Origin: a virus
Reading direction: 5' to 3' (one strand)
Virus genome (UHGV): UHGV-1543656
DNA: 25,891 bases
Position numbers and translations under genes: made by a program. Shown here one piece after another: positions 404-18,237 of the stretch. Under the pieces are notes generated by a model, which saw only the letters and a program-made list of their open reading frames with translations, searched no databases and had not been told where the DNA came from. Numbering within the stretch: position 1 is the first letter of the stretch; each line of letters opens with the position of its first letter.

Positions 404-415
404 GGTCTAAATACA

Positions 416-1519: not shown

Positions 1520-2182
1520 ATGTCAATTGAGCATATTTTAATCGGGAAGCATCATGGTGGTTCTGATGACTGGCGTACACCGTATCGTTTATTTCGTAAC
1601 CTGCATCGTGAATTTGGTTTTTCGATGGATGGTGCTGCAACTAAGCATGACGCATTGCTACCACGGTTCACCGATGATATCCACAATCAGTCATGGGTTG
1701 GTGAAAAGGTATTCTGTAACCCACCATACAGCGATATTCCGTCGTTCCTCTTAAAAGCGTCTGAATCAGATTTAGCGGTATTCCTGATACCGTACCGACC
1801 CCACACCACATACTGGCTTAAGCACATCTTCACAAACCCGCTTTGCCATGAAATCCGTATTCTTCATCGCGCAGTTAAATACCTTCCACCAGCAGGGCAT
1901 AACGGGCTTACTACTAGGTCACCGTTTGCTGCTGCAGTCGTTGTTTTTAAAAAAGAATCACGCAGGCATGAAATTACGCAGATGGTTTGCTGTGCTGACA
2001 CGCTATTACCGTTAACCATCATTAACCGTGGTGGACTAAGAGGAAGACCCACCATTTACCCACCTGAGACGCTCGACAGCTTCATAAAGCTATACAGGCA
2101 AGGAAAACCCATTAAGTGCATTGCAGATGCTCTCAGAATGCCTCTGAGCACGTCATACAGGATTGCTCAAAGGTTGGGCTAA
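1520..2182 (+). CDS. Phage-type N6-adenine DNA methyltransferase (Dam family) with C-terminal HTH
   Basis: DDWRTPYRLF...EFGFSMDGAAT...ALLPRF...FCNPPYS matches the catalytic NPPY motif and the upstream pattern of phage Dam methyltransferases. C-terminus IKCIADALRMPLSTSYRIAQRL looks like a resolvase-type HTH. Confidence 0.75.
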   Translation: MSIEHILIGKHHGGSDDWRTPYRLFRNLHREFGFSMDGAATKHDALLPRFTDDIHNQSWVGEKVFCNPPYSDIPSFLLKASESDLAVFLIPYRPHTTYWLKHIFTNPLCHEIRILHRAVKYLPPAGHNGLTTRSPFAAAVVVFKKESRRHEITQMVCCADTLLPLTIINRGGLRGRPTIYPPETLDSFIKLYRQGKPIKCIADALRMPLSTSYRIAQRLG

Positions 2183-2565
2183 AATTCTCATAAATATGGT
2201 CATTTACAAGACAGGCGATTCAGATATTAAGAAGTATTCCTGTGAACAATAAATGACCAATCAGTAATTATTCTGTGAAATAATTGTTGCAATTTATAAT
2301 CACACATGGTATAGTTTCATAGTGGGCTGATAAAAGAACTCAGAACATTAAGAGGTTACAACGTTGGGAGGCGTCAGGGTATTGACGGATTTTCACGGCC
2401 TCTTATTCAATCAAGGCTTTTCCTTTTGCTGTTAATACTCGCGTAATCACTTAGATTTCTGGGTTCCTTTATCAGTCCATCTTCTAATTAATTCACTCCC
2501 TCTGGGGTTGGTCACTATACGTGGTCAGCCCTTTCTTTGTTTTATTTTTAAAAAGGAAAATATAA

Positions 2566-3527
2566 TGGAAAAATTTCACATGTTTGATGACCGTATTTAT
2601 CAGATGACTAATGGCGTTAAAGCTGCCGACCGTATTATTTACACTGTCATGTTGAATGAACAAAAGTTTTATCACGATAAGGGGCAATATTATACCCCTT
2701 CATATGCTCATCTTGGTCAGTATGCTGGAATCACAAGAACATCCGTGATTGCATGTATGAAACGACTTGAGGCACATGGTTTAATCAAGAAAACTAACGT
2801 TGCAAGCAATCAGTGTGTTATTAAAGTTTATTCACTTGATGAAGTACCGGAAGTTTTAACAGAGCTTACAGCTAAGGAAGCCAGAAAGGCAAAGCTGGAG
2901 TCTAAAGTTACTCAGTCAGTCAAGAAAGATGACCCACTGAGTCAAAATTCTTTACCCACTGAGTTAAAATTTTTTACTCAGTCAGTCAAAATCTTTGACA
3001 CGTATAATAACAGTAATAACAAGAAAGAACTTATTAATAACAATAAAGAAGATGACTTTGAAGAAGAATCTCTTAAGAAGGGAGCTTCGCTCTGTGATTC
3101 ACATGAATGTGATTCTCTTGATATTGAAGAGGCTATTAAAGAGACTGTTAAAACATCTGACTTAGATGACCTTGATAGTGAAGCTACTAAAGAGGCTGTT
3201 AAAAAGGAAGATAAAATCTCTGATGTGAATGAAGTTAGTGACCAGCAAGATACACCTTGCCGCCTCGAATCAACTGATGATGAATTACCGGATGTTGACC
3301 TTGATGATGAAGAAGACCCTGAAGAGGAATTGAAACGTGAACAGCGTAAAGCAGAAATTAAAGAAAGATTCAGAAAGGCTAAGCTAAAGAACAGAATTGA
3401 TGAACTTGATGACTTTGATGATAGTGACGATGATGACTTTTCTTTCACACCAAAAAAGAAAACCCACACTGAACCGAAGAAAGAAAAAGTGAAAGTAAGA
3501 CGTATTTATGCTGGAGGTATGCGCTAA
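2566..3527 (+). CDS. Winged-helix DNA-binding protein (replication-initiator or regulator-like) with long acidic low-complexity C-terminal region
   Basis: Track ORF 2508..3527; start moved to the in-frame ATG at 2566 (MEKFHMF), which has an AAGGA-like RBS. N-terminus ...AGITRTSVIACMKRLEAHGLIKK resembles a wHTH. C-terminal ~180 aa are D/E-rich with K-rich stretches. Confidence 0.45.
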
Positions 3528-3817
3528 TGAAAGAATTTCACGGTGAAAAACGATACAAAGATTACCTGTTAAAGCGTTACAGCATTTCTCGTGAGGGTCA
3601 CCTTATGAAGGATACTTATGGGGAGGTTTACCGGATTCGACCGAAGAAAGAAGGGAGGGATTATTATTTCGTCGATGGTGTGACAGATTTAAAGATTGAC
3701 GCTTTGAGGTTTGCAGTGCTGTATCATTATGATATCTGGGATTCAGTCCACCAGCTACGATTAAAAGACGGTGACCCCGGTAATCTGAGGGCCACCAATA
3801 TCATCACAAAACGTTAG
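3527..3817 (+). CDS. Hypothetical protein, possibly HNH_3-like nuclease fold
   Basis: Start overlaps the upstream stop, suggesting translational coupling. YYFVDGV...VHQLRLKDGDPGNLRATN weakly resembles the HNH_3 / NUMOD-type pattern. Low certainty. Confidence 0.35.
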   Translation: MKEFHGEKRYKDYLLKRYSISREGHLMKDTYGEVYRIRPKKEGRDYYFVDGVTDLKIDALRFAVLYHYDIWDSVHQLRLKDGDPGNLRATNIITKR

Positions 3818-4071
3818 TTTGTTTTACCATCATCAATCGTAATTGTGATTTCATATTTGAAAAGCTTAATGCTGAAATTGAATCGTGTACTTTTGGCGAT
3901 AATCATTTTTAAAAGCTGATACACCAGAAGCACCAGAAACACAAAGCAACCTAAGCTTGCGAATCTGTGAGATTCAGCAATTGTTTCAAGAAAACCCATT
4001 AACTCCCCTTATTTATCAAAGGGAATGACCTGTATCAGCCCCTATAACCATATTAACATGTAAATGAGTTG

Positions 4072-4100
4072 TTGACAATATGTTAAATATATGTTAAGAT
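4072..4100 (+). promoter_or_regulatory. Sigma70-like promoter with a direct-repeat operator in the spacer
   Basis: TTGACA (4072-4077), 17-nt spacer, TAAGAT (4095-4100). The spacer carries the direct repeat atatgttaa / atatgttaa. Followed by RBS TAAGGAG (4121-4127) and ATG at 4136. Confidence 0.5.
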
Positions 4101-4135
4101 TGTAGTATGAGTAAGAGATTTAAGGAGATTTTACA

Positions 4136-4426
4136 ATGACTCACACAGTTACACGCCTTTTGCCAGAGGCATTTGAACGACTGGCAGCAATCAAAGCTAA
4201 ATATCCCGATATGAAGCACACAGCGCTTGTTGGAGAGCTTTTAAAAGAGTCGGTATCCCTGACCCCTTTCGATAACGTTAAGGGTGTTGCAGAGGGTTCT
4301 AAGGCCATCAGAATCACAACGGGCCAACTGGAACTACTCAAAGCACAGTCCGCAGTAGCAGGTTGCTCAATGATTCAGGTGTTGAGTGCTAAGGTCCATC
4401 AACTGGCGGATAAATTGGAGGTTTAA
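4136..4426 (+). CDS. Small regulator, ribbon-helix-helix-like
   Basis: Strong SD TAAGGAG. N-terminus TRLLPEAFERLAAIKAKYPDMKHTALVGELLKESV fits the beta-strand plus two helices pattern of RHH (CopG/Arc) proteins. Confidence 0.45.
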   Translation: MTHTVTRLLPEAFERLAAIKAKYPDMKHTALVGELLKESVSLTPFDNVKGVAEGSKAIRITTGQLELLKAQSAVAGCSMIQVLSAKVHQLADKLEV

Positions 4427-4647
4427 TGTGTTACAGGTTCCAATATTCCACACTTGGCAGCCACCTAATCAGACAGAATTTAGCAGATGCTGAATTTGAA
4501 GATGTGACCCTCAAAGCAAACAAACGATTAAAACCCTCTCAAATCCACCAGCTTAAACACGAATTAAAGCCACTGGTAATACTCGACTATAACGACCCTG
4601 AACAGCTTGAGCAGGGAATTAAGCTTATTTCTGAATGGGGTGCTTGA
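4426..4647 (+). CDS. Hypothetical protein
   Basis: ATG overlaps the upstream stop (TAATG); GGAGG sits 4 nt upstream. Confidence 0.5.
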   Translation: MCYRFQYSTLGSHLIRQNLADAEFEDVTLKANKRLKPSQIHQLKHELKPLVILDYNDPEQLEQGIKLISEWGA

Positions 4648-4862
4648 TGAAAACTATCACAGTACAACTTCAGACTAATAAAGCATTTCGTTATTTTGAA
4701 AACTTGCTTGAGTTATACGAAGGATGGGGAAGCATCCACGGCAAAGATGATATCTATCTTCACTTGTCAGCCCCTAACTATTCTCTGAAGGCTCCGGTTA
4801 AGCAAAGCTGGTTAAAAGACTACGGTCACCAGATGGGGCTATTAGTCTCAGACTTGAGCTAA
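4647..4862 (+). CDS. Hypothetical protein
   Basis: Track ORF 4635..4862; start moved to the in-frame ATG at about 4647 (MKTITVQ), where the start and the upstream stop overlap. Confidence 0.45.
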   Translation: MKTITVQLQTNKAFRYFENLLELYEGWGSIHGKDDIYLHLSAPNYSLKAPVKQSWLKDYGHQMGLLVSDLS

Positions 4863-5008
4863 AAACAGTAAAACATATCTCTCAGGCTTTACCAGACGAA
4901 TTCTAAGCGATTTTAAGCCCCTAATCAGGGTAACTTAGGGAATCGCCTTAAGTGGTCTAAAAAAGGGGTTAAAACGTCTTAGAATGCGATACAGGAAGGA
5001 TTTTAAAA

Positions 5009-5314
5009 ATGAATTATTCAATGCAAGTTATGGTTGACCAAGAAACTATGAATTGGCTTAATGACCTGAACAGGTCGGGCTTTAATATCTATTTCATGCA
5101 TTGTTTTGAAGCGTCAACGTATATTGACAAGCATATAATCAACGAAATTAAACTTGGTGACTTTGTTCATAAACTGGAAGTAACAGACCCAGACTACAAG
5201 AGATTTATCACAAGCGAATGCAACCGACTTGATTTAAGCCCGGAGCAATTATTGAAGCTGAATGTATTCTTGACCTATCAGAATGAATTAAACCCTTACA
5301 GTGAGGTGATGTAA
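5009..5314 (+). CDS. Hypothetical protein
   Basis: Track ORF with GGAAGGA-like RBS upstream. Confidence 0.5.
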   Translation: MNYSMQVMVDQETMNWLNDLNRSGFNIYFMHCFEASTYIDKHIINEIKLGDFVHKLEVTDPDYKRFITSECNRLDLSPEQLLKLNVFLTYQNELNPYSEVM

Positions 5315-5391
5315 TGACACTCGTTATTCTCTGGACGGTTTTAGGGCTATTTGTTGGTTGCTGGGTAGGTAATACGGTAAATAAGAATTAA
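5314..5391 (+). CDS. 25-aa hydrophobic peptide (MTLVILWTVLGLFVGCWVGNTVNKN), small membrane peptide
   Basis: Below the track length cut-off. ATG overlaps the upstream stop (TAATG) and has a GAGGTGA RBS 4 nt upstream. One predicted transmembrane helix with a polar tail. Confidence 0.45.
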   Translation: MTLVILWTVLGLFVGCWVGNTVNKN

Positions 5392-5415
5392 TGTTACCAA
5401 TCTGTTAAAAAGCTG

Positions 5416-5444
5416 TTGACAAATAACCTTAAGCATGACATAAT
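5416..5444 (+). promoter_or_regulatory. Sigma70-like promoter (TTGACA-17-CATAAT)
   Basis: TTGACA at 5416-5421 and CATAAT at 5439-5444 with a 17-nt spacer. Confidence 0.4.
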
Positions 5445-5450
5445 TTTAAT

Positions 5451-5645
5451 TATAGAGAGAATTGCTCTCTTATTTCTTTCAACAATTCCATCTACATCTA
5501 GGGATAGTTATTCTGAAAGGTGCAATGCTTTTCGCTACATGGCCTCTTATATAACCTGAGAGGTCATCTCGAAAAGTGCTTAATCATTCATTCATTGAAC
5601 CCTTTACAGCTTTGCCCTAATCATGATTAGGGCTTTCTTTAAGAG
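5451..5645 (+). ncRNA. Candidate small non-coding RNA, promoter to terminator with no ORF
   Basis: Starts just downstream of the promoter above. 5' hairpin agagag-aattg-ctctct at 5454-5470. Ends at the terminator 5614-5640. Longest internal ORF is under 10 codons. Confidence 0.25.
5614..5640 (+). terminator. Rho-independent terminator
   Basis: Perfect 20-bp palindrome gccctaatca/tgattagggc followed by TTTCTTT. Confidence 0.65.
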
Positions 5646-5886
5646 TTTTTAAACAGAACTTTTAAAGAAAGTTTTTCCTGAAACTTCGTTAACGTTATAA
5701 AGCAAACCTCCAAAGCCCTTCACAGATAAGGATGATTCCATGAATATCCGAATCACCTATGTTTAGGGCTTTTTCAGCTTTTAAAAAGCATACTTGGCAA
5801 ACCGCCTTTTAAGTCTCTTCTAAGTTTAGATAGGCTGTCAGGTGTGCTTTTTAAAAACTGAATATTACTTAGAAGAGGAAAATGAA

Positions 5887-6594
5887 ATGGAAAATCTATA
5901 TATTAACGGTAAAAAGATTGATAGCTTCGGTGACTGGTCACCACAGACTGAACATCCAGCTATCGCTATTCAGCGCAAAGAGCACGATGAAAGAATTGCA
6001 CTTGAGCAAGAGTTAAAGATGTCACCAAAGGAAATCATCTTTGTGACTCCTGAACCTCAAGAGATGCCTGATGTATGCAAAACTGAATCATTACTTGAGC
6101 TTGAGCGTGAATATTACCCACTACTGAAAGCACAAAGAATTAAACTTGATATTGCTTACGATGCGGTTAAGAACTTCGAAGAAACCTCGAAACCTTCAGA
6201 ATATGATATTGCTTACGAGATTAAGTCAAACCCGTTTATCTATTATGAAGGAAACTTTAATGATGGTTTTGGTACAGCGATTGAAGACGTTCCTAAAGTT
6301 CTTCAAAGTATCCCTGAAGGGTTCCGGTTAATTGATGTCAGACAAGCATTAAGGGGTTCTGGTCAATTTATTTTGACGACTGATAAAACAGATGAAGAGA
6401 TTCTTCAGTTAGCTGAAGCTAATTTGACTAAGCATTATTCCGGTAAACTGGATAAGTTAAAGCAAAAGCTTAAAAAAGAACTTGATAGCATGAAAGCGAT
6501 TATTAGTGACTATGAAACGCAGAAGAAGGTTGCTATGCAGGCTGATATTGAGCAGTTAACGAAGATTTCTCAGAAATACAGCAAAGCACTTTGA
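5887..6594 (+). CDS. Hypothetical protein
   Basis: Track ORF 5842..6594; start moved to the ATG at 5887 (MENLYING), which has an AGAGGAAA RBS. Confidence 0.55.
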   Translation: MENLYINGKKIDSFGDWSPQTEHPAIAIQRKEHDERIALEQELKMSPKEIIFVTPEPQEMPDVCKTESLLELEREYYPLLKAQRIKLDIAYDAVKNFEETSKPSEYDIAYEIKSNPFIYYEGNFNDGFGTAIEDVPKVLQSIPEGFRLIDVRQALRGSGQFILTTDKTDEEILQLAEANLTKHYSGKLDKLKQKLKKELDSMKAIISDYETQKKVAMQADIEQLTKISQKYSKAL

Positions 6595-6617
6595 TTATGA
6601 ATTAAAAGAGGTGATTA

Positions 6618-6827
6618 ATGTTTGAAGAACGTTTAGAGACTATTCGGTCTGTTTGTGAAAACTTAAAGTTACAAACTAAGCCAGCCTTAAGAATTAAAAC
6701 CAAACATCAAATTATCACCTCACGCAAACCAAAAACACGCAAGATTCCAAAGTGGTGTATCGACCGTATCCCTTCCGATGCTCAAATTATAGGTGAAACG
6801 GAACTACATTATCTTGTCAGGCATTAA
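6618..6827 (+). CDS. Small basic hypothetical protein
   Basis: Strong RBS AGAGGTGA just upstream of the ATG. Confidence 0.5.
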   Translation: MFEERLETIRSVCENLKLQTKPALRIKTKHQIITSRKPKTRKIPKWCIDRIPSDAQIIGETELHYLVRH

Positions 6828-6876
6828 AAAAGATTGGTTGGGTGTATGAGATAGGTTCTATCGAATCTATAACACG

Positions 6877-6918
6877 GGGAGAGATTATCGATATTATTCG
6901 GTAGTTTCTCCCTTTTTT
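6877..6918 (+). terminator. Terminator-like hairpin followed by a T6 run
   Basis: gggaga ... tctccc then tttttt. The loop is long, so this is uncertain. Confidence 0.35.
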
Positions 6919-6925
6919 GTATGTG

Positions 6926-6996
6926 TGCTACGTGAAATCTTCTGAACAGATATACCCACCAAAAATTATTTTTTACGTAGCTCACGCTTAACAGAG
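6926..6996 (+). promoter_or_regulatory. Conserved 71-nt cis-element, copy A, upstream of the tape-measure-domain gene
   Basis: Terminal blocks tgctacgtgaaatct and cacgcttaacagag are identical to copy B at 9071-9141, with the same 57-nt offset between blocks. Internal blocks atacccac and ttacgta are shared. Confidence 0.55.
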
Positions 6997-7010
6997 GTGA
7001 AATATGAACA

Positions 7011-9059
7011 ATGGCACAATTTAAAGTTGATAGTTTTATCGTTGAGCTAGGCTTCAGCGAGAACGTTATTAAGGGCTTGCAAAGAGTTGAAAAGGCAGCT
7101 TTGCAGTCAGCACAAAGAATTGAACGTAATTTGAATAGAGCGTTTAAGGTCGATACCAAGCAACTTGACAGCAATCTGACAAGTTCTTTAGGGCAACTTG
7201 AAAGGAAGTTTAATAAGACCTTTGACAAGATTGAGCAGCGTCTTAAAAACACTAGAGCGTTTAAGATTAAAACGGAAATTGAGGATACTTTAAAGCCACT
7301 TAGACAGCCAAGACAGCCACGAATTAGCGGCAACAGAGCAATCACAGCGGCTTATTCAGCGAATATGTCTAAGCTGAAAGGTCTTAACCCAATTGTCGAG
7401 AAATACATTAAGAGTCAGTTTTACGCATTAAGTAGTAAATCCAAGACACTTGGAAACGAAGCTTTTAATCGTGAGTTAGCAAAGTTAAATCAAAATCTAC
7501 GTGAAACACTTTCTAAGTTTAACAAGACCACCAGCAAAAATAATCACAGTGAAAATGCTTCAAATGGTTTAGATGTACTAGCTTCAAGTGCAATTAAAGC
7601 GGGTACGGCTATTTACACTTTTCAAAGTGCTTTGGCAGCTTATCAGCGAGTAATGGAAATTGGTTTACAGCGTGCAAGTGCTGAACGTTCAATTGATTTC
7701 GTATTTGATAAAGATGCAGGTCAGGTAAAAGAGTTCACAAAGTCATTAGCTCAAACAACGGGTTTAGATATCGCTGAACTGCAATCACAGTTTGCTGGTT
7801 TCGGTGCTTCAGCTAAAGAGTCTATGGGTATTCAAGGTTCTGAAGAACTTTTTAGAAGTATGATTGGCTATTCTCGTCTGATGGGTCGAAGTGAAGAAGA
7901 GATTAAGCGAGCACTGACAGCATTATCACAGATGGCTGGTAAGGGTCAGGTTATGGCTGAAGAGCTTAAGGGGCAACTAGCTGAAGCTGTTCCTGGTATG
8001 GTTCAGGTATTCGCTAAAGCAACCGGAAAGACTGAACAGGAATTATTTGATGCCATGAAGAAGGGGGCTTTAAAATCTGCCGATACTCTTCAGAAGGTCA
8101 CTCAGGAACTGAATAGACAAATCACCGCTAAAGGTGGCTGGAAAGCTATTTCAGAAAGTACACAGGCACAATTAGGGAACCTGAAAAACTCTTGGAATAC
8201 CACGCTTGATAGTATCTTCAGAGGTTCTGAAAGTGGTCTGCAAGATTTTACAAGAAGCTTAACAACGCTTTTAAACGCTCTTGGTGGAAGTGGTAAAAGT
8301 CTTGGTGAATCTCTTGGTAGCTTGATGACTGATATGTCACATGGTGTCGATAGTCTGGCCGATATTAGTTACAAGGTGCGAGCGTTCTTTGATGAGGTGA
8401 CATTAGCTTATCGTGGTTTAACCGATGAACAAAAGAAAGTTGTTGATGCTTTAGGTTCTGGCTTGATTAATAGTTTAAAAGTCTTGGCTGGTGTTATTGC
8501 TGTAAATAAAGTTGTTGGTGTAACCAGAAGTATTTACGGGCTTATGACTGCTATCACAAGATTAGGTCAGGTTGCTGATACTACAGCGGATAACGTGAAT
8601 AGAAAGAATGGGAAACCATCAAGACTGAATCTTGGGAATATGCTATTAGCTGGTAGCGCTCTCTATGCAGGTTATGAAAGACTAGCCTCTACACCTGAAC
8701 GAATGGAAGCACAAGCTAAATTACCAGAGTTAGCTAAAGAATCTGGACTTAAGCCAGTATTTACTATGGACGATGTGAAAGGTTGGTTTAATAGTGCAGC
8801 TATGAATCTTGCTAACTTCCAGCATCCAGAATTAATCACCATGAGACAAGATGCGGCATTAACGAATACGGATATCCAAAGCCTGAGAGATGAAATTAGT
8901 GCTTTGAGCAAACGTATTCAGGAGCCTGTGAAAGTTTCACTTGGTGGTGAAGTTGCCATTAAACCAGATGAAACCAGCTTTATGACCTTTAGCAGTAATA
9001 TCTACGACCAATACGCAGAAGCTACGCTATTAAGTTCATCATTCCCAGAAGATGATTGA
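7011..9059 (+). CDS. Protein with phage tail tape-measure-type domain
   Basis: 682 aa. Central segment SEEEIKRALTALSQMAGKGQVMAEELKGQLAEAVPGMVQVFAKATGKTEQELFDAMKKGALKSADTLQKV matches the tape-measure domain signature as I recall it. N-terminal part is predicted coiled coil. Confidence 0.55.
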   Translation: MAQFKVDSFIVELGFSENVIKGLQRVEKAALQSAQRIERNLNRAFKVDTKQLDSNLTSSLGQLERKFNKTFDKIEQRLKNTRAFKIKTEIEDTLKPLRQPRQPRISGNRAITAAYSANMSKLKGLNPIVEKYIKSQFYALSSKSKTLGNEAFNRELAKLNQNLRETLSKFNKTTSKNNHSENASNGLDVLASSAIKAGTAIYTFQSALAAYQRVMEIGLQRASAERSIDFVFDKDAGQVKEFTKSLAQTTGLDIAELQSQFAGFGASAKESMGIQGSEELFRSMIGYSRLMGRSEEEIKRALTALSQMAGKGQVMAEELKGQLAEAVPGMVQVFAKATGKTEQELFDAMKKGALKSADTLQKVTQELNRQITAKGGWKAISESTQAQLGNLKNSWNTTLDSIFRGSESGLQDFTRSLTTLLNALGGSGKSLGESLGSLMTDMSHGVDSLADISYKVRAFFDEVTLAYRGLTDEQKKVVDALGSGLINSLKVLAGVIAVNKVVGVTRSIYGLMTAITRLGQVADTTADNVNRKNGKPSRLNLGNMLLAGSALYAGYERLASTPERMEAQAKLPELAKESGLKPVFTMDDVKGWFNSAAMNLANFQHPELITMRQDAALTNTDIQSLRDEISALSKRIQEPVKVSLGGEVAIKPDETSFMTFSSNIYDQYAEATLLSSSFPEDD

Positions 9060-9070
9060 TAATAGTCGAA

Positions 9071-9141
9071 TGCTACGTGAAATCTGTAAAGCTAATACCC
9101 ACACTGAAAAATAGAATTTACGTACAACACGCTTAACAGAG
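9071..9141 (+). promoter_or_regulatory. Conserved 71-nt cis-element, copy B, upstream of the 264-aa gene
   Basis: See copy A. The 11-mer GCTACGTGAAA also occurs at 726-736. Confidence 0.55.
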
Positions 9142-9216
9142 AAAACACTTATATATCAAAGGCTTGGTTAAAAATGATTAAAATACACTAAGCCTTTGAA
9201 ATCAAAGGGGAATTTA

Positions 9217-9990
9217 ATGATTTACTCTAACCAAATCAAATATAGTGGCAAAGACGGCATCTATTTCCACTTAAGAGATAATGTAGATGCCTTCTTAACC
9301 TTATCAGCAACTGAAAACATGGAATTTGATAGTCCTATGCAGGTGACTACACAGAACATGCAATCAGGACAAACCGTTACAGATAATGTGCAAAGAGCAC
9401 CCAGAACAATCACTATTAGTGGTGTCGTTGTAGTTGGCTATGAAGGAAGCTTATTATTAACTCGTCAGGGTCAATTAGTAGAAAACTTCATCGACACTCT
9501 TGAAAGCTGGCGTGACCAGAAACAGATTATTTCGGTCATCTGTAAAGACGGAATTAAAATTGACGATTCCATTATTACGAGTTTTAAAGCCTCTAAAGAT
9601 GTGGGGATTTCAAACGGTCTAAGAATCCAGCTAACTTTTCAGGAAATTAACTTCAAAGCTATTGTTGGTCAGACTGATATTTCTGCTGCAACTGGAAAGA
9701 CTGCTACCACGAATGATGGTGGTGCAACTTCTAAGAAGAACACTGGTAACACTACGACAAGTCTAGGTAATGGTATGTTGCTGTGTCAGGAGCTATATAA
9801 TCGCTCTACGAGTGAACTCACTAATGAGCAACTTCAAGCCCGTATCAATTGTGGTAAAAGTGTCAAAGTTGAGAATGGAAAAAGCACCTTCTCAGATGCC
9901 GCTAATGCGCAAGCTTCAAAGGTGCTTAATAATGCTGGTACAGGTAGTACTTTGAAGAAATTTTCTGTGAATCCTAACAAGCGATTCTGA
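9217..9990 (+). CDS. Hypothetical protein, possibly virion or tail-tip associated
   Basis: Track ORF 9196..9990; start moved to the ATG at 9217 (MIYSNQ), which has an AAGGGG RBS. Beta-rich N-terminal half and a Thr/Gly/Asn-rich linker. Functional guess rests only on its position after the tape-measure-domain gene. Confidence 0.4.
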
Positions 9991-10004
9991 CGATAGAATC
10001 TCAA

Positions 10005-11528
10005 CTATATGATAACCTCATCAACATCTATCAACCCCCTCTCAGTGACTTCAGAAAGCGACTGTATAGCCTCTGTAACGTCCTCTGAGGGGGTTTCTGT
10101 TATTGGTAGGGTGATTGACTTACTATTGTGAAAAGTTACTTTACAGCGACGTTTAGCAGTATTTAAAATGACCTCTTTAACAGCACTTTTGATTATCAGT
10201 TGTGCTTCAATCCTTCCCGCCTTTGTAGTCAAGTCACAATCAGACAAACAACCAACATCAATAGATTTAAGGCGTTGTGTCTCCTTCTCGATATCCGCAT
10301 CAACCTGTGATAGCTCACCTTTTAACTGTTTTAGTTTGCTGGTAATAGCGGACAAGTCTTCAATTTCAAGTGATAGCTGTACCAGCTTTTCAATATTGCT
10401 TGAGATGTGTTCACGGTGTAGCTTCAGTGTGTCTATGGTATTCGTCATATCGCTATCAAATCGGTCTATACGGGATAGCAGGGCAAGCAATGTACCATCG
10501 GTTTGCTTACGTGAAAGTCCTTTAGCACTACAACGGTTTTCATTACGAAGAGGACAACGATAAATCCCGTTTCTTGTATCGCTAAAGCCTGTGATAATCA
10601 AAGCATGACCACATTCAGAACAACGGATAACACCTTTGAAAAGATTCACACTCAATGGTTTATCTGAAGCAGGCTTTCTTCCATAACGAGAATATGATAG
10701 TTGCTGGACTTTGTAGAAATCAGTCTCAGGGATGATAGGGGGGAAATAACCAGCTATCTCCTCACAGCCTTTAGGTGTGAAGTAACCAATTACAGAGCGA
10801 TTTTTCAGAAGGTCTTGCACTGAGGTTTGACCAAACTTACCTGCTTTGTACTGGTTAAGTGTCTGGTGACCTTCATCATTAAGAGTCCTGACAATCTCCC
10901 AAATAGACTTACCCTCTAACCGTAATTGAAAGCACCTCTTCACAGTTTCTACCTTCTCAGGTATCACAGAGAAGGTCTTACGGTCATCATTAAGCTTAAG
11001 CCATGCAGGACAACGCTTATAAATCTTGATACCGGCTTTAGCAGCTTCTTTCTTTGCATCCCATGCAGCTTGGATACGTTCAGATTTACGCAAACTCTCC
11101 TCATGCGACCGCTGCATTATCAAAATGCTTTTAATCAGAGCTAACGGGTCTTTTAAGCTTTCCTTTGTGTAATGTTCACCATCGGACAAGGTGACCACAT
11201 CTACACCAGAGCGAAGAATGTTTCTGAGTAGCTCACTTGCTTGGTCTACATCTTGACGTGACAGACGGTCAAGAGATTCTATCAAGAGCGTATCACCAGC
11301 TTTAACAAGCCCTTTCTCGATAGCGGTTAAAAAGTCACCTAAGCCACCTTTCAAGTGCTTACCAGTGAACCCACTCACCCCCAAATCACGAAAAGATAAA
11401 TCTTGGTCAAGGTAGTACTCAGGATGAGCCTTAAGCCAGTCATTAACCATCTTAGACTGTCGGCGTAATGAATCACCTCGGGATTGCTTCTCAGATGAAA
11501 ACCTGATGTAAGAAATGGCACGTTTCAT
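10005..11528 (-). CDS. Large serine recombinase (integrase)
   Basis: N-terminal resolvase-type catalytic domain (YIRFSSEKQ with the catalytic Ser, then SLDRLSR). Followed by a recombinase domain, a Cys-rich zinc ribbon (CSECGH...YRC) and a C-terminal coiled coil. Sits next to attR. Confidence 0.9.
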   Translation of the reverse strand: MKRAISYIRFSSEKQSRGDSLRRQSKMVNDWLKAHPEYYLDQDLSFRDLGVSGFTGKHLKGGLGDFLTAIEKGLVKAGDTLLIESLDRLSRQDVDQASELLRNILRSGVDVVTLSDGEHYTKESLKDPLALIKSILIMQRSHEESLRKSERIQAAWDAKKEAAKAGIKIYKRCPAWLKLNDDRKTFSVIPEKVETVKRCFQLRLEGKSIWEIVRTLNDEGHQTLNQYKAGKFGQTSVQDLLKNRSVIGYFTPKGCEEIAGYFPPIIPETDFYKVQQLSYSRYGRKPASDKPLSVNLFKGVIRCSECGHALIITGFSDTRNGIYRCPLRNENRCSAKGLSRKQTDGTLLALLSRIDRFDSDMTNTIDTLKLHREHISSNIEKLVQLSLEIEDLSAITSKLKQLKGELSQVDADIEKETQRLKSIDVGCLSDCDLTTKAGRIEAQLIIKSAVKEVILNTAKRRCKVTFHNSKSITLPITETPSEDVTEAIQSLSEVTERGLIDVDEVII

Positions 11529-11578
11529 TGTTCACCTCAAAACTGATGCCCTAGATTGTATCGTTTTAGATGGTGTAT

Positions 11579-11980
11579 TTAAACGTGTCTAATAAAAATC
11601 ACCCGATTAACGCCGCGCTGATGTAAACCGCGATTAAGCGTTTGTTCCTCTTCCCCTTTGGCGAAAAACTGTGGATGGCGGACTTCCACCCCATAATTAA
11701 ATTCACCGGGAAGAGAATCGAGAAAATGCCAAAGCGCAGGCAGCTCCCGTGGGCCGAATGTGGCAGGCAGTTGCAGCCAGTATTGTCCAATGCGCGGAGC
11801 CAACGGTGACATGCGGGTCAAAAATTCAGTCACTAAATCATCGCAATGCCGTAATGCTGCCTGATGCGAAATGGTCGCCGGAAACTTAAAACAGAAGCGG
11901 AAGTCATCTGTGGTCTGCTCACGCCAGCGCAGGACAACCTCGGGTTTCGGCAGGGCATAAAGCGTGGTGTTACCCTCCAC
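11579..11980 (-). pseudogene. yecE: 5'-proximal fragment of the host DUF72-family gene, truncated at its 5' end by the prophage and at its 3' end by the serine-integrase element
   Basis: Track ORF starts at a GTG. The in-frame upstream sequence has no ATG back to a stop at about 12038. NCVEGNTTLYALP matches the conserved N-terminal motif of DUF72 proteins. It continues in frame into 53..403 once the insertion is removed. Confidence 0.6.
11595..11601. repeat. attR core (AAAATCA) of the serine-integrase element
   Basis: Junction read aataAAAATCAcccgatt: element sequence to the left, host sequence to the right. Confidence 0.6.
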
Positions 11981-12006
11981 GCAGTTAACATGACGGGTAT
12001 TAAGGA

Positions 12007-13320
12007 TTAACTTACTGATTTTAATAAGCCTCTGGTGTCACTTTGGTGACTATGGGGCATCATTGGGACATAATCTGTCAGCTTCTGATTCAGCATTGCG
12101 ATCTGTTCTGCATTGCTGTCAGTCATCCATGCTCCGTATACATTGAATACCATCTGGGCACTTGCATGGCCCATCTGGCTGGCAATGAAGCTTGGGTTTG
12201 CTCCGGCAGATAATGACCAGCACGCATAAGTGTGTCGTGACTGGTATGCCTTTCGATGCCTGATCCCTGCACGCTTAATGGCTGTTTCCCATGAGTCACC
12301 TACAGAATCGACTTTGTAGACAAAACCTACCTGTTCGCTTTTTCTAACCACTTGAGGGTTAAACACGAAAGTACATTCATGGTTCACTGAACGTCCATAT
12401 TCACGTAGTTGCACCTTGATGTTGTACTGCTTACCCAGTCTTGTCATTTCAGCCTGATTTTTCAGGACACTGATAGCGGGCTGGATAAGGTGCACAACCC
12501 TGTTTGTGCTTGCTTCAGTTTTCGGTAGAGTGAACTCACCAAGTTTCGTATAATTGCGCCTGATGGTAATTGTTCCTGCCTTCAGATCGATATCTTCCCA
12601 GGCCAGGGAGACCAGTTCACCGTGACGCATTCCTGTGTACACAGCCAATGACCACAGGTTTTTCGTCTGCTGATGTCGGCAAGCATCTATCAGGCGAATA
12701 AATTCGTCACGAGTTAGCGGATCTGGCTCTGCCCTGGCTCTTTTAAGAGGCTTAATTCCCTGGAAGGGATTTGCTTCTAAGTAACCGTGATCTGCAGCAA
12801 ACTGAAACATTCCAGCGATTGTCGTCATGTAATAATTTACAGTAACGACGCTCCGTCCTTTTGCTGCTGCTTTGTTTTTCGTTGAATTCTGATACCCGGT
12901 CAGCAAATCTTTCCTGATATACAGCAATTCCTCTTTGGTTACCGATGACACCAGTTTACTGCCTCCAATTTTCGGAACCATCGTTCTTGCAACGGATTCA
13001 TAGCGATTGAATGCATTTGCAGAGATTTCCATTCGTTTCAGATCCAGCCACTTTTCTTCAAGTTCCTTCACCGTAATTTCTTTTTTACTTACCCCAAAAG
13101 CCTGAAGGTTGGGGGAGTCAGGGAACTGTGCAGCATAATCAAAGCTTCCTGTGCGGATGGCAAAACATACTGATGTCCGCAGTTCCCCGGCGATCTTCCT
13201 GTTCTTGGCAGTGTCAGGGACACCAAGATTTTCCCTGACACGTTTACCTTTAAAATTAAACCAGATGCGTAATGTGCCGCCGTGGTTTTCGACGCCTGTT
13301 GGATATTTGACTTTATCCAT
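12007..13320 (-). CDS. int: Tyrosine-type phage integrase
   Basis: C-terminal catalytic region HRKAYQSRHTYACWSL...GHASAQMVFNVYGAWM carries the R..HxxR..Y signature. Located at the prophage end next to xis. Confidence 0.9.
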   Translation of the reverse strand: MDKVKYPTGVENHGGTLRIWFNFKGKRVRENLGVPDTAKNRKIAGELRTSVCFAIRTGSFDYAAQFPDSPNLQAFGVSKKEITVKELEEKWLDLKRMEISANAFNRYESVARTMVPKIGGSKLVSSVTKEELLYIRKDLLTGYQNSTKNKAAAKGRSVVTVNYYMTTIAGMFQFAADHGYLEANPFQGIKPLKRARAEPDPLTRDEFIRLIDACRHQQTKNLWSLAVYTGMRHGELVSLAWEDIDLKAGTITIRRNYTKLGEFTLPKTEASTNRVVHLIQPAISVLKNQAEMTRLGKQYNIKVQLREYGRSVNHECTFVFNPQVVRKSEQVGFVYKVDSVGDSWETAIKRAGIRHRKAYQSRHTYACWSLSAGANPSFIASQMGHASAQMVFNVYGAWMTDSNAEQIAMLNQKLTDYVPMMPHSHQSDTRGLLKSVS

Positions 13321-14044: not shown

Positions 14045-14350
14045 TCAGAGCCGTATGTTTGTAGCGGGTTCAATACTGATAATTTCTGCTGAGATAAGCA
14101 TCCCGGCAAGCCAGAGCTCTCCGGACAGGTCTTCATCCTGGCATGTCAGTTCGCCAATATTAATGGTGGCCATGATATCTGTTTCCCCTGTACGCTCATC
14201 CTCGACTTCTTCATAAGGCAGCGTTGCGTACAGGCTTTCAATAGCGCAACTGATAACATCGAGTCCGGTCAGGTTGCCACCGACAGTGACTTCGAATGTT
14301 TCGCGGTATTCCCATTGCCCGAAAGTTAATCGAACGGTTTGTTTCGCCAT
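14045..14350 (-). CDS. Acidic hypothetical protein
   Basis: Track ORF 14045..14386; start is likely the internal ATG at 14350 (MAKQTV). Confidence 0.45.
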   Translation of the reverse strand: MAKQTVRLTFGQWEYRETFEVTVGGNLTGLDVISCAIESLYATLPYEEVEDERTGETDIMATINIGELTCQDEDLSGELWLAGMLISAEIISIEPATNIRL

Positions 14351-14457
14351 GCGTCCGCATGACGTCAGATTTGGGTCATAGTTCATTATTTGCGGTTGAG
14401 TATTATGAGTGTTTATCTGCTTTTCCCTTAGCCCGACGGCCTGCCGGGCATATTAAG

Positions 14458-15285
14458 TTATTTAACCTGGATAAATGGTGTATTGGCACCGCTGGTCATG
14501 TATTGCGGCAGCGTGCCGTTCCATTTATTGATGGCTTCCAGCTCCATAACACCGGGGTTCTGACGCAGAGCTTCACCGCGTAAACGAATAGCATCGGCTT
14601 CAGCCTGGGCTTTTGTGCGAATCGCATCAGCCTGTCCGGCAGCTTCCGCGCGCAACATGTTGGCTTCCGCTTCGCGCTGTTTTACTTCCTGCTCGCGTTG
14701 CAGAGTTTTCTGGTTCGCCGTGACTTTGGCATTAATGCTGTCGATAACAGTAGGCGGGTACTCCGGCTTACCCACATATGAGAGGCTTATTACCTGAATA
14801 CCGATGGGCGTCATTTCTTCCTGAATGTCTTTAAGAGCTGCATCCAGCAGCTCAGACTTGCCGCCGTCGATAAATTTGTCGGTGGTCATTTTGCTGGCCA
14901 GTCGGTTGAGTGCGTCGGCTATCTTCTGGCGCAGGTCGGTGTCGGTAATGTCGTCCACGCCTTTGCGGTAGGTCTGAAAGACTGTGGTAACTTTGGATGG
15001 ATCAACCTTGTAGGCTACTCCGATGTGGTAACCAATGGTTGTTCCATCGCTCATCTGGAAACTGAATGGATCATCGTAGGTCTTCATCTGCTTAAAGGTC
15101 GGGAAGATATAAACTTCAGTGTTCCAGCCTGTCCAGTAGCGACCAACACCGACCACTTCACCGACGCCTTTGTCGTCGCCAAGTTTGTTGACTTTGATGC
15201 CCACATTACCAGGCTCAACACGATCACAACCGACAAGGCCAATGGCAGGCAGAACAATGGCTAAAGAAAAAATAATTTTTTTCAT
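14458..15285 (-). CDS. SPFH/band-7 (prohibitin-family) lipoprotein
   Basis: Signal peptide with lipobox LVGC. SPFH-like core beginning VEPGNVGIKV, followed by an Ala/Glu/Arg-rich helical tail. AAGGA RBS. Confidence 0.75.
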   Translation of the reverse strand: MKKIIFSLAIVLPAIGLVGCDRVEPGNVGIKVNKLGDDKGVGEVVGVGRYWTGWNTEVYIFPTFKQMKTYDDPFSFQMSDGTTIGYHIGVAYKVDPSKVTTVFQTYRKGVDDITDTDLRQKIADALNRLASKMTTDKFIDGGKSELLDAALKDIQEEMTPIGIQVISLSYVGKPEYPPTVIDSINAKVTANQKTLQREQEVKQREAEANMLRAEAAGQADAIRTKAQAEADAIRLRGEALRQNPGVMELEAINKWNGTLPQYMTSGANTPFIQVK

Positions 15286-15470
15286 CTTTTATCCTTAGTG
15301 AAAGAAAGCCCCTTATAAATGGTATAAATACATGGCGGGGTTAGAAACGTCAGTGCAAAGCCAGAAATCACCGCTACCGTATCCTTCATTGATATCAGAA
15401 ACGGGACGAGCAATCCGTAAATACATGCGATAATTGCCAGTGATATAACTATTCTGAAATAAATGTTCAT
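15282..15470 (-). CDS. Small membrane protein (two predicted TM helices), translationally coupled to the SPFH gene
   Basis: AGGAGG RBS. Its stop overlaps the SPFH start codon (ATGA). Confidence 0.6.
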   Translation of the reverse strand: MNIYFRIVISLAIIACIYGLLVPFLISMKDTVAVISGFALTFLTPPCIYTIYKGLSFTKDKR

Positions 15471-15530
15471 GGTCCTCCTGCTGTATTCAGCTTGCCTTAT
15501 TTAATTGCGTCATGGTTAATTTCGTTTACG

Positions 15531-15923
15531 TCAGAATGGTTTTGTTGCCATCAGTTCGTAATATCCGGCGCTCCATGTGTCATATTTTCTGAACCATTTT
15601 TCTGTATACTGTTTCCTGGCGATGAGTCTGCGCAGTCGTCTGATTGTTCGCTGGTGTGCGCGGGTGTACTCTGTGGTTGATTCTCCACGTTTCCATATTT
15701 CATTCCCGTTGAAGATAAAACGCTTGTCAGGATGGCGTTGTCGGAATCCTGAACGTTCAAAAGCGCGGGTGGTCATAAAGAATGCCAGGTAACGAATTGC
15801 CGTTTTTCGAGTGAGGCATTTTTTTGTTCTTCCGTGATGTGTTACAAAAAATAACGGGCCGACGGGTGTATCATGTTTCTGTAATGCCTGGTCAATGGCG
15901 CTGGCGGTGCGGTTGTCGATCAT
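15531..15923 (-). CDS. Basic hypothetical protein
   Basis: Track ORF; Arg/Lys-rich C-terminal half; sits inside the leftward operon. Confidence 0.45.
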   Translation of the reverse strand: MIDNRTASAIDQALQKHDTPVGPLFFVTHHGRTKKCLTRKTAIRYLAFFMTTRAFERSGFRQRHPDKRFIFNGNEIWKRGESTTEYTRAHQRTIRRLRRLIARKQYTEKWFRKYDTWSAGYYELMATKPF

Positions 15924-16138
15924 TTCTTTATTTCTCCCGAATAACGTTCATGACTCATTATTTCCCAGTTCCGGCCGTCGTCTTTCGATAACAGCCGCCA
16001 GCGACGGTTAACCTTCAGACTGAGATATCCGTTGCGCTGTATCCGATGCGGGAATATACGTCGGCATCTGTACCGCCGCAGGACCAGCAACGCCTGCTGG
16101 TGGACCCACTCAGGAATTCGCGTTGCTGTTAATGTCAC
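15920..16138 (-). CDS. Hypothetical protein (uncertain)
   Basis: Stop overlaps the downstream start (ATGA). Arg-rich, and its 5' end overlaps the upstream gene. Confidence 0.3.
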   Translation of the reverse strand: MTLTATRIPEWVHQQALLVLRRYRCRRIFPHRIQRNGYLSLKVNRRWRLLSKDDGRNWEIMSHERYSGEIKK

Positions 16139-16325
16139 TGGTTTCCTCCTGAGCAGGTGCTGTTATCTGATACCCCGCTCTTTCTGCCAGCCATATGAAT
16201 GTATCCATGCTGGCAATCAGCTCTCCATCGCGGACTTTGCAGACATCTGTTACCTGGCCATTTTCAATTGTCATAACGATCTGCACTTTTTCGTGCACAA
16301 CAGATACAGGGGATAAATTAGCCAT
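16110..16325 (-). CDS. Hypothetical protein
   Basis: GGAGG RBS. Start overlaps the upstream stop (TGATG). Confidence 0.5.
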   Translation of the reverse strand: MANLSPVSVVHEKVQIVMTIENGQVTDVCKVRDGELIASMDTFIWLAERAGYQITAPAQEETSDINSNANS

Positions 16326-16684
16326 CAGTTAATTCCTCCGCTGATATATTTTTCTTTCGCGTAATCAATAACCTCTTGTAAAAGGTTGTCTATAATTAAC
16401 TTTCCGGTTTCAGCCTGGTATTCAGTATGTTGATTAATCCCGATGGCATTCTGGTATGCAGTTCGGAATTCTGTTTCACCCTCCACTCGACCCAATTCAC
16501 CACGGGTAATATCTTCAAAGCGCAACAGCAACTGGTTTATAAACTGTTCTGTTATTTCTATGGTCGTAATGTTCCCATCCAGAAGGTCAACAATAAGCAG
16601 ATCACCACCTGTTTTACGTTTTATTCGATGGAGTGCTGCAACAGCTATACGGCGACGATATGTATTAATGGGTTCATGTGTCAT
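16325..16684 (-). CDS. Hypothetical protein
   Basis: Track ORF within the coupled leftward operon. Confidence 0.5.
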   Translation of the reverse strand: MTHEPINTYRRRIAVAALHRIKRKTGGDLLIVDLLDGNITTIEITEQFINQLLLRFEDITRGELGRVEGETEFRTAYQNAIGINQHTEYQAETGKLIIDNLLQEVIDYAKEKYISGGIN

Positions 16685-17652: not shown

Positions 17653-17823
17653 CGTCATCAATACTCGCGTCGCTCTTGAATTTAAGAGCGATGCTCTTTA
17701 TATCCTCTGAAATTATTACCAGATCACCATATGTTATATTTTTATTATTGCGCGCAGTGCTTTTTTGTATGAAATCAAGCAATTCACCAATGAGACAAAT
17801 ATGGTAAGCATCACAGTTTTTCA
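17582..17823 (-). CDS. Hypothetical protein
   Basis: Track ORF 17582..17866; start moved to the internal ATG (MKNCDAY), which overlaps the upstream stop (ATGA). Confidence 0.4.
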
Positions 17824-18237
17824 TGCGCAGATATCCTTTGCTGCCGTTTCGCCAGTTAACAGCCACATCGGATCGCAGCCAAGAATATTTGCCAGTGGGA
17901 TAAGCATACTGATAGTTGGTTCATACTCTCCGCTCTCCCACTGGATGATAATTTCTTCATCGAGATCGAGCAGCCTGGCGAGTTCGGCGGTTGTTAAGCC
18001 GCAGGCTTCGCGTTGGGTGCGAAGACGGTTGTTGATTGCAGAATTTTTGTTCTGTAAAAGCATTGCTGACGATAGCTTTCTGGATATGCTATTTGTCATA
18101 TCCCATGCCAGTCCTGCGCATGACTCTATATCGCTAGAGAGCGTAGCATCAGGTGTTGCTTTTGCTATTAGTGTAATGAGGCTGCCGAGGTTTTTCAGTT
18201 CTTCGAGACAGTCAAGAGTTGTAGCTTTATTGATCAT
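17821..18237 (-). CDS. HTH (XRE-type) DNA-binding protein, first gene of the leftward early operon
   Basis: C-terminal half ...EACGLTTAELARLLDLDEEIIIQWESGEYEPTISMLIPLANILG is a classic XRE helix-turn-helix. It occupies the position that gene N holds in lambda. Confidence 0.6.
   Translation of the reverse strand: MINKATTLDCLEELKNLGSLITLIAKATPDATLSSDIESCAGLAWDMTNSISRKLSSAMLLQNKNSAINNRLRTQREACGLTTAELARLLDLDEEIIIQWESGEYEPTISMLIPLANILGCDPMWLLTGETAAKDICA

Follow-up and report, generated by a model that had tools for sequence, protein, structure and literature searches.

What would a phage do with a membrane-scaffold protein of the SPFH (Band 7) type, and why is the gene for this protein tied to that of a very small membrane protein? 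The question is raised by UHGV virus genome UHGV-1543656, the whole stretch of which (25,891 nucleotides) is referred to here as the window. It contains two overlapping open reading frames (ORFs) on the minus strand, encoding a 62-residue protein with two predicted transmembrane (TM) segments, called here the hairpin (15470..15282), and a 275-residue SPFH protein with a lipoprotein signal (15285..14458). A sequence-only reading of this locus had described the two genes and proposed that they form a superinfection-exclusion or abortive-infection module; the description has stood, whereas the proposed role is neither shown nor favoured by the results reported below. The pair is not a prophage-specific accessory. 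Widespread and almost always paired, the module occurs in phages both temperate and virulent, and at least one bacterial family inherits it vertically as a cellular locus.

The SPFH protein and its hairpin partner

Both overlapping genes are genuine and their arrangement goes far beyond chance, given the purifying selection acting on them, the recurrence of the pair in 10 viral clusters and at no fewer than 78 of 80 bacterial loci, and the existence of natural in-frame fusions. The final codons of the hairpin gene, AAA AGA TGA, run into the ATG of the SPFH gene, producing the stop/start overlap ATGA (15285-15282) that had been read from the sequence alone. The hairpin gene had also been credited with a strong ribosome-binding site; the motif AGGAGG is indeed present, though with a spacing of only 3 nt. 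The features of the pair are listed in Table 1.

The larger product is a member of the SPFH/Band 7 superfamily, its match to Band_7 (PF01145) scoring 109.3 bits against a Pfam gathering cut-off of 23.6. Its signal peptide, MKKIIFSLAIVLPAIGLVGC, followed by DR, has a basic n-region, a hydrophobic core and the sequence LVGC, which satisfies the lipobox pattern [LVI][ASTVI][GAS]C at L17-C20 and places Asp at position +2 after Cys20. The initial description of a lipoprotein with an LVGC lipobox and a band-7 core (Band_7 at 109 bits, Cys20) is thus borne out. The lipobox Cys is kept in at least 90% of 46 diverse members of the subfamily, and Asp is found at +2 in 52 of 52 unique close relatives. 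The alignment of the 46 members also revealed a C-terminal subfamily signature, K-W-(N/D)-G-x-L-P, in which W255 and G257 are invariant.

An AlphaFold2 (AF2) model of the SPFH protein as a monomer, of moderate confidence (predicted local distance difference test score, pLDDT, 72.7), consists of a signal helix, a beta-rich region (residues 20-94), an alpha/beta region (96-175), one 65-residue helix (178-242) and a low-confidence C-terminus. As modelled, the protein would follow the full plan of a cage subunit: anchor, SPFH domain, long helix and C-terminal cap motif. A Foldseek search of the PDB with this model gave near full-length matches (about 240-300 columns; E 1e-13 to 1e-7) to subunits of every solved SPFH cage: prohibitin (8rrh, the top match, E 1.3e-13), HflK/C (7vhq, 7wi3 and 9cz2), erlin, stomatin, flotillin and QmcA-YbbJ (8z5g). 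Major vault protein was also among the matches. Among PDB entries, HflK (E 2e-4) and prohibitin-2 come closest in sequence. Every viral structural neighbour in BFVD is an uncharacterised 'Band 7' protein, giant viruses being among the sources.

The system most like the phage protein in sequence is HflK/HflC-FtsH of E. coli, with which it shares the SPFH domain, the long helix, the C-terminal cap and a periplasm-facing orientation (predicted for the phage protein); no solved structure matches it better in sequence than that of HflK, and its model gives full-length fold matches. It differs in being lipid-anchored at Cys20 (predicted) rather than held by an N-terminal TM helix, and in comprising one SPFH gene and a separate 62-residue hairpin partner rather than two SPFH paralogues; any link to FtsH is by analogy. 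The NCBIfam equivalogs are not reached: the protein scores 26.2 bits against the 134.4 required for TIGR01932 (hflC), and 23.6 against 159.4 for TIGR01933 (hflK). An identity as HflK or HflC was rejected on these scores, and because there is a single gene with a lipoprotein signal, the neighbour of which encodes a 62-residue hairpin and not an SPFH paralogue. The prohibitin PHB1/PHB2 cage provides the top structural match, has subunits of almost the same length (272 residues for PHB1, against 275) and faces a compartment topologically equal to the periplasm. Identity is only about 15-17%, however, and prohibitins have an N-terminal anchor helix and form PHB1/PHB2 hetero-oligomers, with neither a hairpin partner nor a lipid.

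In SPFH-NfeD operons, such as those for QmcA-YbbJ and for Pyrococcus PH1511-PH1510, the gene for an SPFH scaffold is likewise accompanied by a gene for a small membrane partner, which sits with the cage in the solved QmcA-YbbJ complex (8z5g). The phage family shares with these operons the conserved adjacency or coupling to the partner gene and an occasional partner-SPFH fusion; NfeD is itself occasionally fused to SPFH. The phage partner nevertheless lacks the NfeD OB-fold (PF01957), for which 62 residues are too few, and matches no Pfam family. Identity as an SPFH-NfeD operon was rejected on the grounds that the hairpin has no NfeD domain. Furthermore, QmcA faces the cytoplasm according to Chiba et al. 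2006, as cited in PMC12086679, whereas the phage SPFH protein is predicted to be exported. By analogy, the pair would resemble HflKC and prohibitin in orientation and QmcA-YbbJ in operon logic. It matches no defence system catalogued in PADLOC.

In the hairpin, residues 1-29 and 32-48 (approximate limits) are hydrophobic, the short N-terminus is basic and the C-terminal tail is rich in Lys and Arg. The positive-inside rule and the fusion forms described below suggest that both ends lie in the cytoplasm (N-in/C-in). Pro23, at the end of the first TM segment, is kept in at least 90% of 25 diverse hairpins and is followed by the motif xL(I/V)S(A/S)xx(S/T), with a short polar turn joining the two helices. 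The hairpin of the window belongs to no Pfam, NCBIfam or PADLOC family, and profile searches of Pfam and the PDB with the 25 diverse hairpins gave scattered chance-level matches, among which there was no holin and no NfeD. A word-index homologue search with the hairpin returned 19 matches, all of them close relatives.

In PHROGs, the hairpin matches phrog_1130, 'membrane protein' (E 3.6e-23), a family placed in the category 'moron, auxiliary metabolic gene and host takeover', and the SPFH protein matches phrog_200, 'lipoprotein'. Both are clustering-based families without a functional assignment. The phrog_200 profile has 379 positions, of which the SPFH protein covers 81-359; the roughly 80 positions lying N-terminal to it would fit hairpin-SPFH fusions or merged gene calls among the members. 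To our knowledge, neither the near-obligate pairing of phrog_200 with phrog_1130 nor their fusion forms have been annotated.

Table 1. Features of the hairpin-SPFH pair in the window.
Feature	Position	Strand	Basis or remark
Shine-Dalgarno AGGAGG of the hairpin gene	15474..15479	-	Read from sequence; 3 nt before ATG, a short spacing
Hairpin gene, 62-residue two-TM inner-membrane protein (predicted), phrog_1130	15282..15470	-	ORF, hydrophobicity, PHROGs
Hairpin family signature P23-FLISMKDT-31	15378..15404	-	Alignment of 25 diverse hairpins
Second Shine-Dalgarno AAGGA, within the end of the hairpin gene	15292..15296	-	6 nt before the SPFH ATG
ATGA stop/start overlap, translational coupling	15282..15285	-	Sequence
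SPFH lipoprotein gene, 275 residues, phrog_200	14458..15285	-	Band_7 E 2.9e-31; phrog_200 E 9e-115; AF2/Foldseek
Lipoprotein signal peptide (residues 1-19) and lipobox L17-V18-G19-C20, Asp21 next	15226..15285	-	Sequence
SPFH (Band 7) domain, residues 22-208	14662..15222	-	Pfam envelope
Single long helix, residues 178-242, corresponding to the coiled-coil wall of SPFH cages	14560..14754	-	AF2 secondary structure; alignment with HflK and cage subunits
C-terminal signature K254-W-N-G-T-L-P260	14506..14526	-	Alignment of 46 diverse members

Distribution, fusions and constraint

Relatives of the SPFH protein were found by tblastn in 784 of 50,697 phage records (about 1.5%). Many of the carriers are virulent, among them the N4-like Pylasvirus and rV5-like Mydovirus, phages of Staphylococcus (Kayvirus and others), 45-kb podophages of Pseudomonas, crAss-like and Caulobacter phages and haloviruses. 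Some of the phage homologues are annotated 'prohibitin family protein'. Pairing was assessed at 209 IMG/VR and phage loci, which were reduced to 106 unique SPFH sequences. A two-TM ORF overlaps the SPFH gene by exactly 4 nt at 82 of these 106 loci, and at 10 others a hairpin is encoded 140-158 nt upstream. The paired loci fall into 10 SPFH clusters at 75% identity, one of which contains the crAss-like phage cr128_1.

The 4-nt overlap is found in the N4-like Klebsiella phage KpCHEMY26 (gp28/gp29, adjoining genes for an RNA polymerase and a dUTPase), in the 186-like phage P88, where the pair belongs to the early operon, and in the Burkholderia phage phiE125 (gp44/gp43). The two genes also overlap in the P1-like phage-plasmid MH445380.1, in which the 78-residue hairpin ORF is unannotated (4511-4275, minus strand); a 67-residue hairpin ORF upstream of 2992 in cr128_1 is likewise unannotated in the deposit. 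In the rV5-like phage Seu621 the hairpin and SPFH genes lie amid ligase and nuclease genes, with one 54-residue gene in between, and in a Pseudomonas 45-kb phage the pair is among the first genes of the record. The Kayvirus Sb-1 departs from this pattern, as a gene for a one-TM protein abuts mbpS, the two lying between the endolysin gene and tgl. The claim that the module is specific to the accessory regions of prophages does not survive this distribution, since the same pair occupies early or middle gene clusters of the virulent phages KpCHEMY26, Seu621 and cr128_1, and of Kayvirus with its one-TM partner. Homologues are also spread over bacterial chromosomes.

Several smaller observations were made on these records. 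The hairpin ORF of phiP27 (NC_003356, 3307-3492) is unannotated. In KpCHEMY26, gp27 (4723-5004; 93 residues, one TM segment, annotated N-in/C-out) overlaps the hairpin gene by 4 nt, giving a three-gene coupled set; the window has no counterpart of gp27. The 666 matching places in complete E. coli genomes include 241 on plasmids, presumably P1-like or SSU5-like phage-plasmids, and the phiE125 record mentions homologues on Yersinia pMT1 and Salmonella pHCM2.

In bacteria, a search with window positions 14300-15600 found relatives in 571 of 5,426 complete E. coli genomes, or about one in ten. A broader scan with a 10-sequence SPFH alignment, in which each species was represented by a single genome, gave 80 loci, which belong to Enterobacterales, Sutterella, Xanthomonadales, Leptospira, Bacteroidales, Saprospirales, Sphingomonas, Caulobacterales, a Eubacteriaceae metagenome-assembled genome, a cyanobacterium and others. 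A hairpin is present at 78 or more of these 80 loci, in seven cases fused in frame to the SPFH protein. The two exceptions, on Shigella flexneri and E. coli chromosomes (loci L213 and L214), have an SPFH gene 96% identical to that of the window without an intact hairpin ORF upstream, and are probably decaying prophage remnants.

The fusions were also seen in a protein-library search, which returned 3,023 clusters (50% identity) at E <=1e-3, 225 of them at E <=1e-30. About 15-19 of the top 150 cluster representatives are N-terminally extended, with lengths of 330-390 residues, and most of the extended forms inspected are in-frame fusions of a hairpin, a signal-peptide-like helix and the conserved lipobox Cys, in that order. 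Several are true fusions, as they have no internal Met. If both ends of the hairpin are cytoplasmic, the next helix can act as an export signal, so the fusions support both the N-in/C-in topology and a functional link between the two proteins. Cleavage of a fusion by signal peptidase II would be expected to regenerate two proteins.

At least one bacterial family carries the module as a cellular locus that is inherited vertically. About 19 Dyella/Rhodanobacteraceae species carry the pair at one conserved chromosomal position, with no phage genes nearby (L230-L261; positions 1-2389 in L244). The pair is divergent there from genes for a blaI-like repressor and a blaR1-like M56 membrane peptidase, and is followed by hemerythrin genes and the ribonucleotide reductase genes nrdB/nrdA. 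The divergent blaI/blaR1-like genes suggest control of the pair by an envelope-stress sensor. A second context, with TetR and ChrR-cupin genes, is also non-phage, and in some of the genomes it represents a second copy (L256, L257, L263, L266 and L278). The chromosomal locus of the Dyella group argues that the basic activity of the module is a general membrane function, which phages have borrowed.

Both genes are under strong purifying selection, and the SPFH gene is unusually constrained for a phage accessory gene. Comparisons with close relatives by NG86 gave, for the SPFH gene, 0.003-0.015 nonsynonymous (dN) and 0.17-0.63 synonymous (dS) substitutions per site, with an omega of 0.012-0.07; the omega of the hairpin gene was 0.05-0.2. 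No signature of diversifying selection or of an arms race was detected in either gene by these comparisons. The two genes are nevertheless exchanged independently of each other. The mature SPFH protein of P88 (L085) is 96.5% identical to that of the window and its hairpin only 21%, whereas at another locus (L111) the SPFH protein is 53% identical and the hairpin 62%. Megablast matches to P88 and to P1-like phages end at the signal peptide, where P88 and the window have a mosaic joint: the DNA for the mature SPFH protein (14491-15237) is about 90% identical. This level of identity links the lambdoid prophage with a 186-like phage and with P1-like phage-plasmids; signal peptide and hairpin come from another lineage. 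The hairpin swaps imply that different types of hairpin work with the same scaffold.

For about 20 years, phage SPFH genes have been annotated as 'putative serine protease', 'lipoprotein' or 'prohibitin family', without a function. A near-constant hairpin partner, occasional fusion and a stable bacterial chromosomal locus turn this vague annotation into a defined and testable system.

Proposed function and alternative explanations

The position of the pair is the first indication of when it might act. The window is 100% identical to the chromosome of E. coli JNEC-KY173 and 92% identical to phage phiP27, and according to the RefSeq annotation and the phiP27 record (NC_003356) the prophage is lambdoid, phiP27-like and inserted into yecE (DUF72). 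Its leftward strand carries, in this order, int (12007-13320), xis, four small genes, the genes for the SPFH protein and the hairpin, five further small genes, a CII-like gene and a LexA-like repressor gene, beyond which lie the rightward early genes. The placing of the pair in the early-left region of a prophage is therefore correct. The genes of this left arm adjoin or overlap one another in a tight co-directional array. A simple consensus scan, which a weak or non-sigma-70 promoter could escape, detected no minus-strand sigma-70-like promoter in 15470-16650 and no terminator past the SPFH gene; a stem-loop at about 14428-14446, just beyond the stop codon of that gene, is no better than shuffled sequences (z -1.4) and lacks a U-run. 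On account of the tight gene array and of the apparent lack of a promoter or terminator of its own, the pair looks like part of the early leftward transcript rather than an autonomous moron. The guanine-plus-cytosine content (0.43-0.53 over the pair, 0.38-0.51 in the flanking genes) shows no sharp step and is uninformative on moron status. In the left arm, no gene can be recognised as cIII, kil, gam, exo or bet, and all neighbours of the pair belong to PHROGs of unknown function. The CII-like helix-turn-helix gene (17821-18237, minus strand), beside the LexA-like repressor gene, matches phrog_4836, 'CII-like regulator' (E 4e-40).

The reading that we favour, tentatively and at somewhat less than an even chance, is that the pair builds a cage that serves the phage's own lytic programme by organising or shielding the inner membrane of the host, and is not a dedicated anti-phage weapon. 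The hairpin would lie in the inner membrane as a helical hairpin, both its ends cytoplasmic. The SPFH protein would be exported, lipidated at Cys20 and, as Asp +2 predicts, held at the periplasmic face of the inner membrane. Coupled translation within a leftward early operon would lead to synthesis on induction or infection and not in the quiescent lysogen. The SPFH subunits would then assemble, in the manner of prohibitin or HflKC, into a ring or cage that covers part of the inner membrane; the hairpins would be its membrane-embedded partner and take the place filled in HflK/C by the N-terminal TM helices and in QmcA by the NfeD protein. The most concrete effect would be to interfere with, or imitate, the control that HflKC exerts on FtsH, by fencing membrane proteins off from FtsH-type quality-control proteolysis or competing with HflKC for it; the cage would also stabilise the envelope.

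A role in the lytic programme is suggested by the position of the pair in early or middle clusters of N4-like, rV5-like and 186-like phages and of the 45-kb phage, together with the apparent lack of a promoter or terminator of its own. The Dyella-group locus points to a generic cellular activity and the low omega to a conserved partner or assembly, and retention through Asp +2 fits a partner in the inner membrane. Several circumstantial considerations point to an FtsH-type target. Proteases of the FtsH family are the partners of SPFH cages that face the periplasm or the intermembrane space of mitochondria, as in HflKC-FtsH and prohibitin-m-AAA, and the phage cage would have the same orientation. 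Lambda acts on FtsH from the same operon position: its FtsH inhibitor, CIII, is made from the pL operon, and HflKC and FtsH control lambda CII. The prophage in the window has a CII-like regulator and no recognisable cIII. The constraint and phylogenetic breadth of the family suit a universal host target, and the Dyella-group locus adjoins a membrane-protease sensor. A link of phage SPFH proteins to HflKC and CII has been the subject of speculation in genome papers (PMC4936722, PMC10269572, bioRxiv 10.64898/2026.08.21.746148), and a role in secretion has been proposed for Kayvirus MbpS (PMC7150955).

Other observations weigh against this reading, and its architectural part is more secure than the part concerning FtsH. 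Since membership of HflK/HflC fails, any connection with FtsH is by analogy alone, and distant SPFH relatives occur in haloarchaeal viruses, in the hosts of which FtsH is uncertain. The structural model is that of a monomer at a pLDDT of 72.7, with the C-terminal 22 residues unmodelled. The timing of expression is deduced from gene order. The free reassortment of hairpins and SPFH proteins means that any contact between them must use the short conserved motif or lipid. Arg at +3 may weaken retention by Asp +2, and many non-enteric homologues have Ser or Thr at +2. A full-text literature search yielded no study of what any phage SPFH protein does, and a survey of SPFH proteins in P. aeruginosa makes no mention of phage. 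From a Pasteurella multocida prophage, an HflK/C-like protein that may belong to the subfamily is reportedly expressed and present in outer-membrane vesicles (PMC9872710).

A bolder version of the favoured reading, which we consider doubtful though worth stating, is that the hairpin and the lipid-anchored SPFH protein form an ancient two-component cage, distinct from both HflKC and SPFH-NfeD and with a partner family of its own, which tailed phages of many families carry as a general host-takeover device. Built early in infection and facing the periplasm, the cage would capture or insulate FtsH or another conserved inner-membrane machine. Such a device would retune membrane proteolysis, the lysis-lysogeny decision of temperate phages and the stability of the envelope. 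If the module does act on FtsH or on membrane integrity, it would represent a common and overlooked means by which phages control the host inner membrane, and would provide a compact two-gene model for the function of SPFH cages.

The main rival is superinfection exclusion, or sealing of the envelope, during the lytic phase in the style of T4 imm and sp: an altered periplasmic face of the inner membrane would block secondary DNA delivery or lysis from without. The small inner-membrane protein Imm of T4 and the lipoproteins Llp of T5, Cor of phi80 and Ltp of TP-J34 are known exclusion factors, and Imm and Sp are the products of early genes of a virulent phage. Like the pair, these are small phage proteins of the envelope that are membrane-bound or periplasm-facing, and a location at the periplasmic face of the inner membrane and a place in early gene clusters would suit exclusion. 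Virulent phages need exclusion too, so that the broad distribution is compatible with it, and the swapping of hairpin types between near-identical SPFH genes could reflect a switching of specificity. Exclusion in the lytic phase also accords with all the findings that count against a lysogen-protecting module. It is nonetheless unsupported and, in our judgement, unlikely. None of these proteins is an SPFH protein or has any relationship of sequence or fold to the pair, neither protein of the pair has a match in PADLOC-DB v2.0.0 at E <=0.1, and no experimental report was found. A paper examined for the point does not discuss whether T4-like phages that carry SPFH genes lack imm and sp. Strong purifying selection, conservation across phyla and synteny in Dyella are, moreover, unlike the usual exclusion factors, which are narrowly distributed and fast-evolving. 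Were the module to exclude phages, it would be a very widespread exclusion system absent from current defence catalogues, relevant to phage therapy of E. coli, Klebsiella and possibly Staphylococcus (through the Kayvirus relative with its different, one-TM partner).

A role in the timing of lysis, with the hairpin acting as a holin or antiholin and the SPFH cage restraining or organising either the hairpin or the true holin, seems improbable. SPFH proteins do regulate channels in eukaryotes, and the hairpin is built like a class II holin or pinholin: it is small (about 60-70 residues), has two TM segments and a charged C-terminal tail and is probably N-in/C-in. In Kayvirus, mbpS and the gene for a small membrane protein lie between the endolysin gene and tgl, and MbpV has been remarked to be holin-like (PMC7150955). 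However, no holin family in Pfam matches any of the 25 diverse hairpins, and neither in the window nor in most phages is the pair anywhere near the lysis cassette. A class II holin gene is already present in the prophage; together with the genes for a lysozyme and a lysis protein it lies downstream of Q, over 10 kb from the pair. In the N4-like, rV5-like and 186-like phages examined the genes occupy early or middle positions, and there are no lysis genes near the Dyella copies.

It is still harder to credit the version put forward by the sequence-only reading, in which a moron expressed by the lysogen would protect it by exclusion or abortive infection. The variable early-left region, the neighbours of unknown function and the PHROGs label of the hairpin family would accord with a moron, and the HflK/C-like protein of a Pasteurella prophage, a possible homologue of the subfamily, is reportedly detectable in uninduced culture (PMC9872710). 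The tight co-directional array and the consensus scan, in which no promoter- or terminator-like site specific to the pair was found, speak against it. The pair also occurs in strictly virulent phages, in which the protection of a lysogen has no meaning, so that an abortive-infection role in lysogens cannot explain it. The PADLOC result, the purifying selection and the non-phage chromosomal copy of the Dyella group likewise tell against a defence module.

Lysogenic conversion, in which a triacylated lipoprotein at the outer membrane or in vesicles would act on an animal host through Toll-like receptor 2 (TLR2), is very improbable: PM0222, the HflK/C-like protein of a lambda-like prophage of Pasteurella multocida, is reportedly vesicle-borne and TLR1/2-activating, with attenuated virulence on its deletion (PMC9872710), and the E. 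coli strain identical to the window is of human clinical origin, but PM0222 (OAZ06802.1) is no more than a possible homologue of this SPFH subfamily, Asp +2 predicts inner-membrane retention in E. coli, virulent phages of environmental bacteria carry the module too, as does Dyella from soil, and TLR2 activation is unspecific, being common to any lipoprotein.

Other features of the window

Two small genes of the leftward operon, upstream of the pair, could represent a toxin-antitoxin system. The product of the first (15920-16138, minus strand; 72 residues) is annotated in RefSeq as a 'ParE family toxin-like protein'; the second (16110-16325, minus strand; 71 residues) overlaps it and could encode the antitoxin. 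Both are of 'unknown function' in PHROGs.

In the identical E. coli record, RefSeq annotates the attachment gene yecE (DUF72) as broken twice (window positions 1-12025). The window opens with one fragment, which is followed, within yecE, by a second mobile element of about 11 kb, with genes for an adenine methyltransferase (about 1520-2182), a tape-measure protein (about 7011-9059), a baseplate protein (about 9217-9990) and a serine recombinase (about 10005-11528, minus strand). A further yecE fragment (about 11597-12025) abuts the phiP27-like integrase gene, indicating that two elements are arranged in tandem in one attachment gene.

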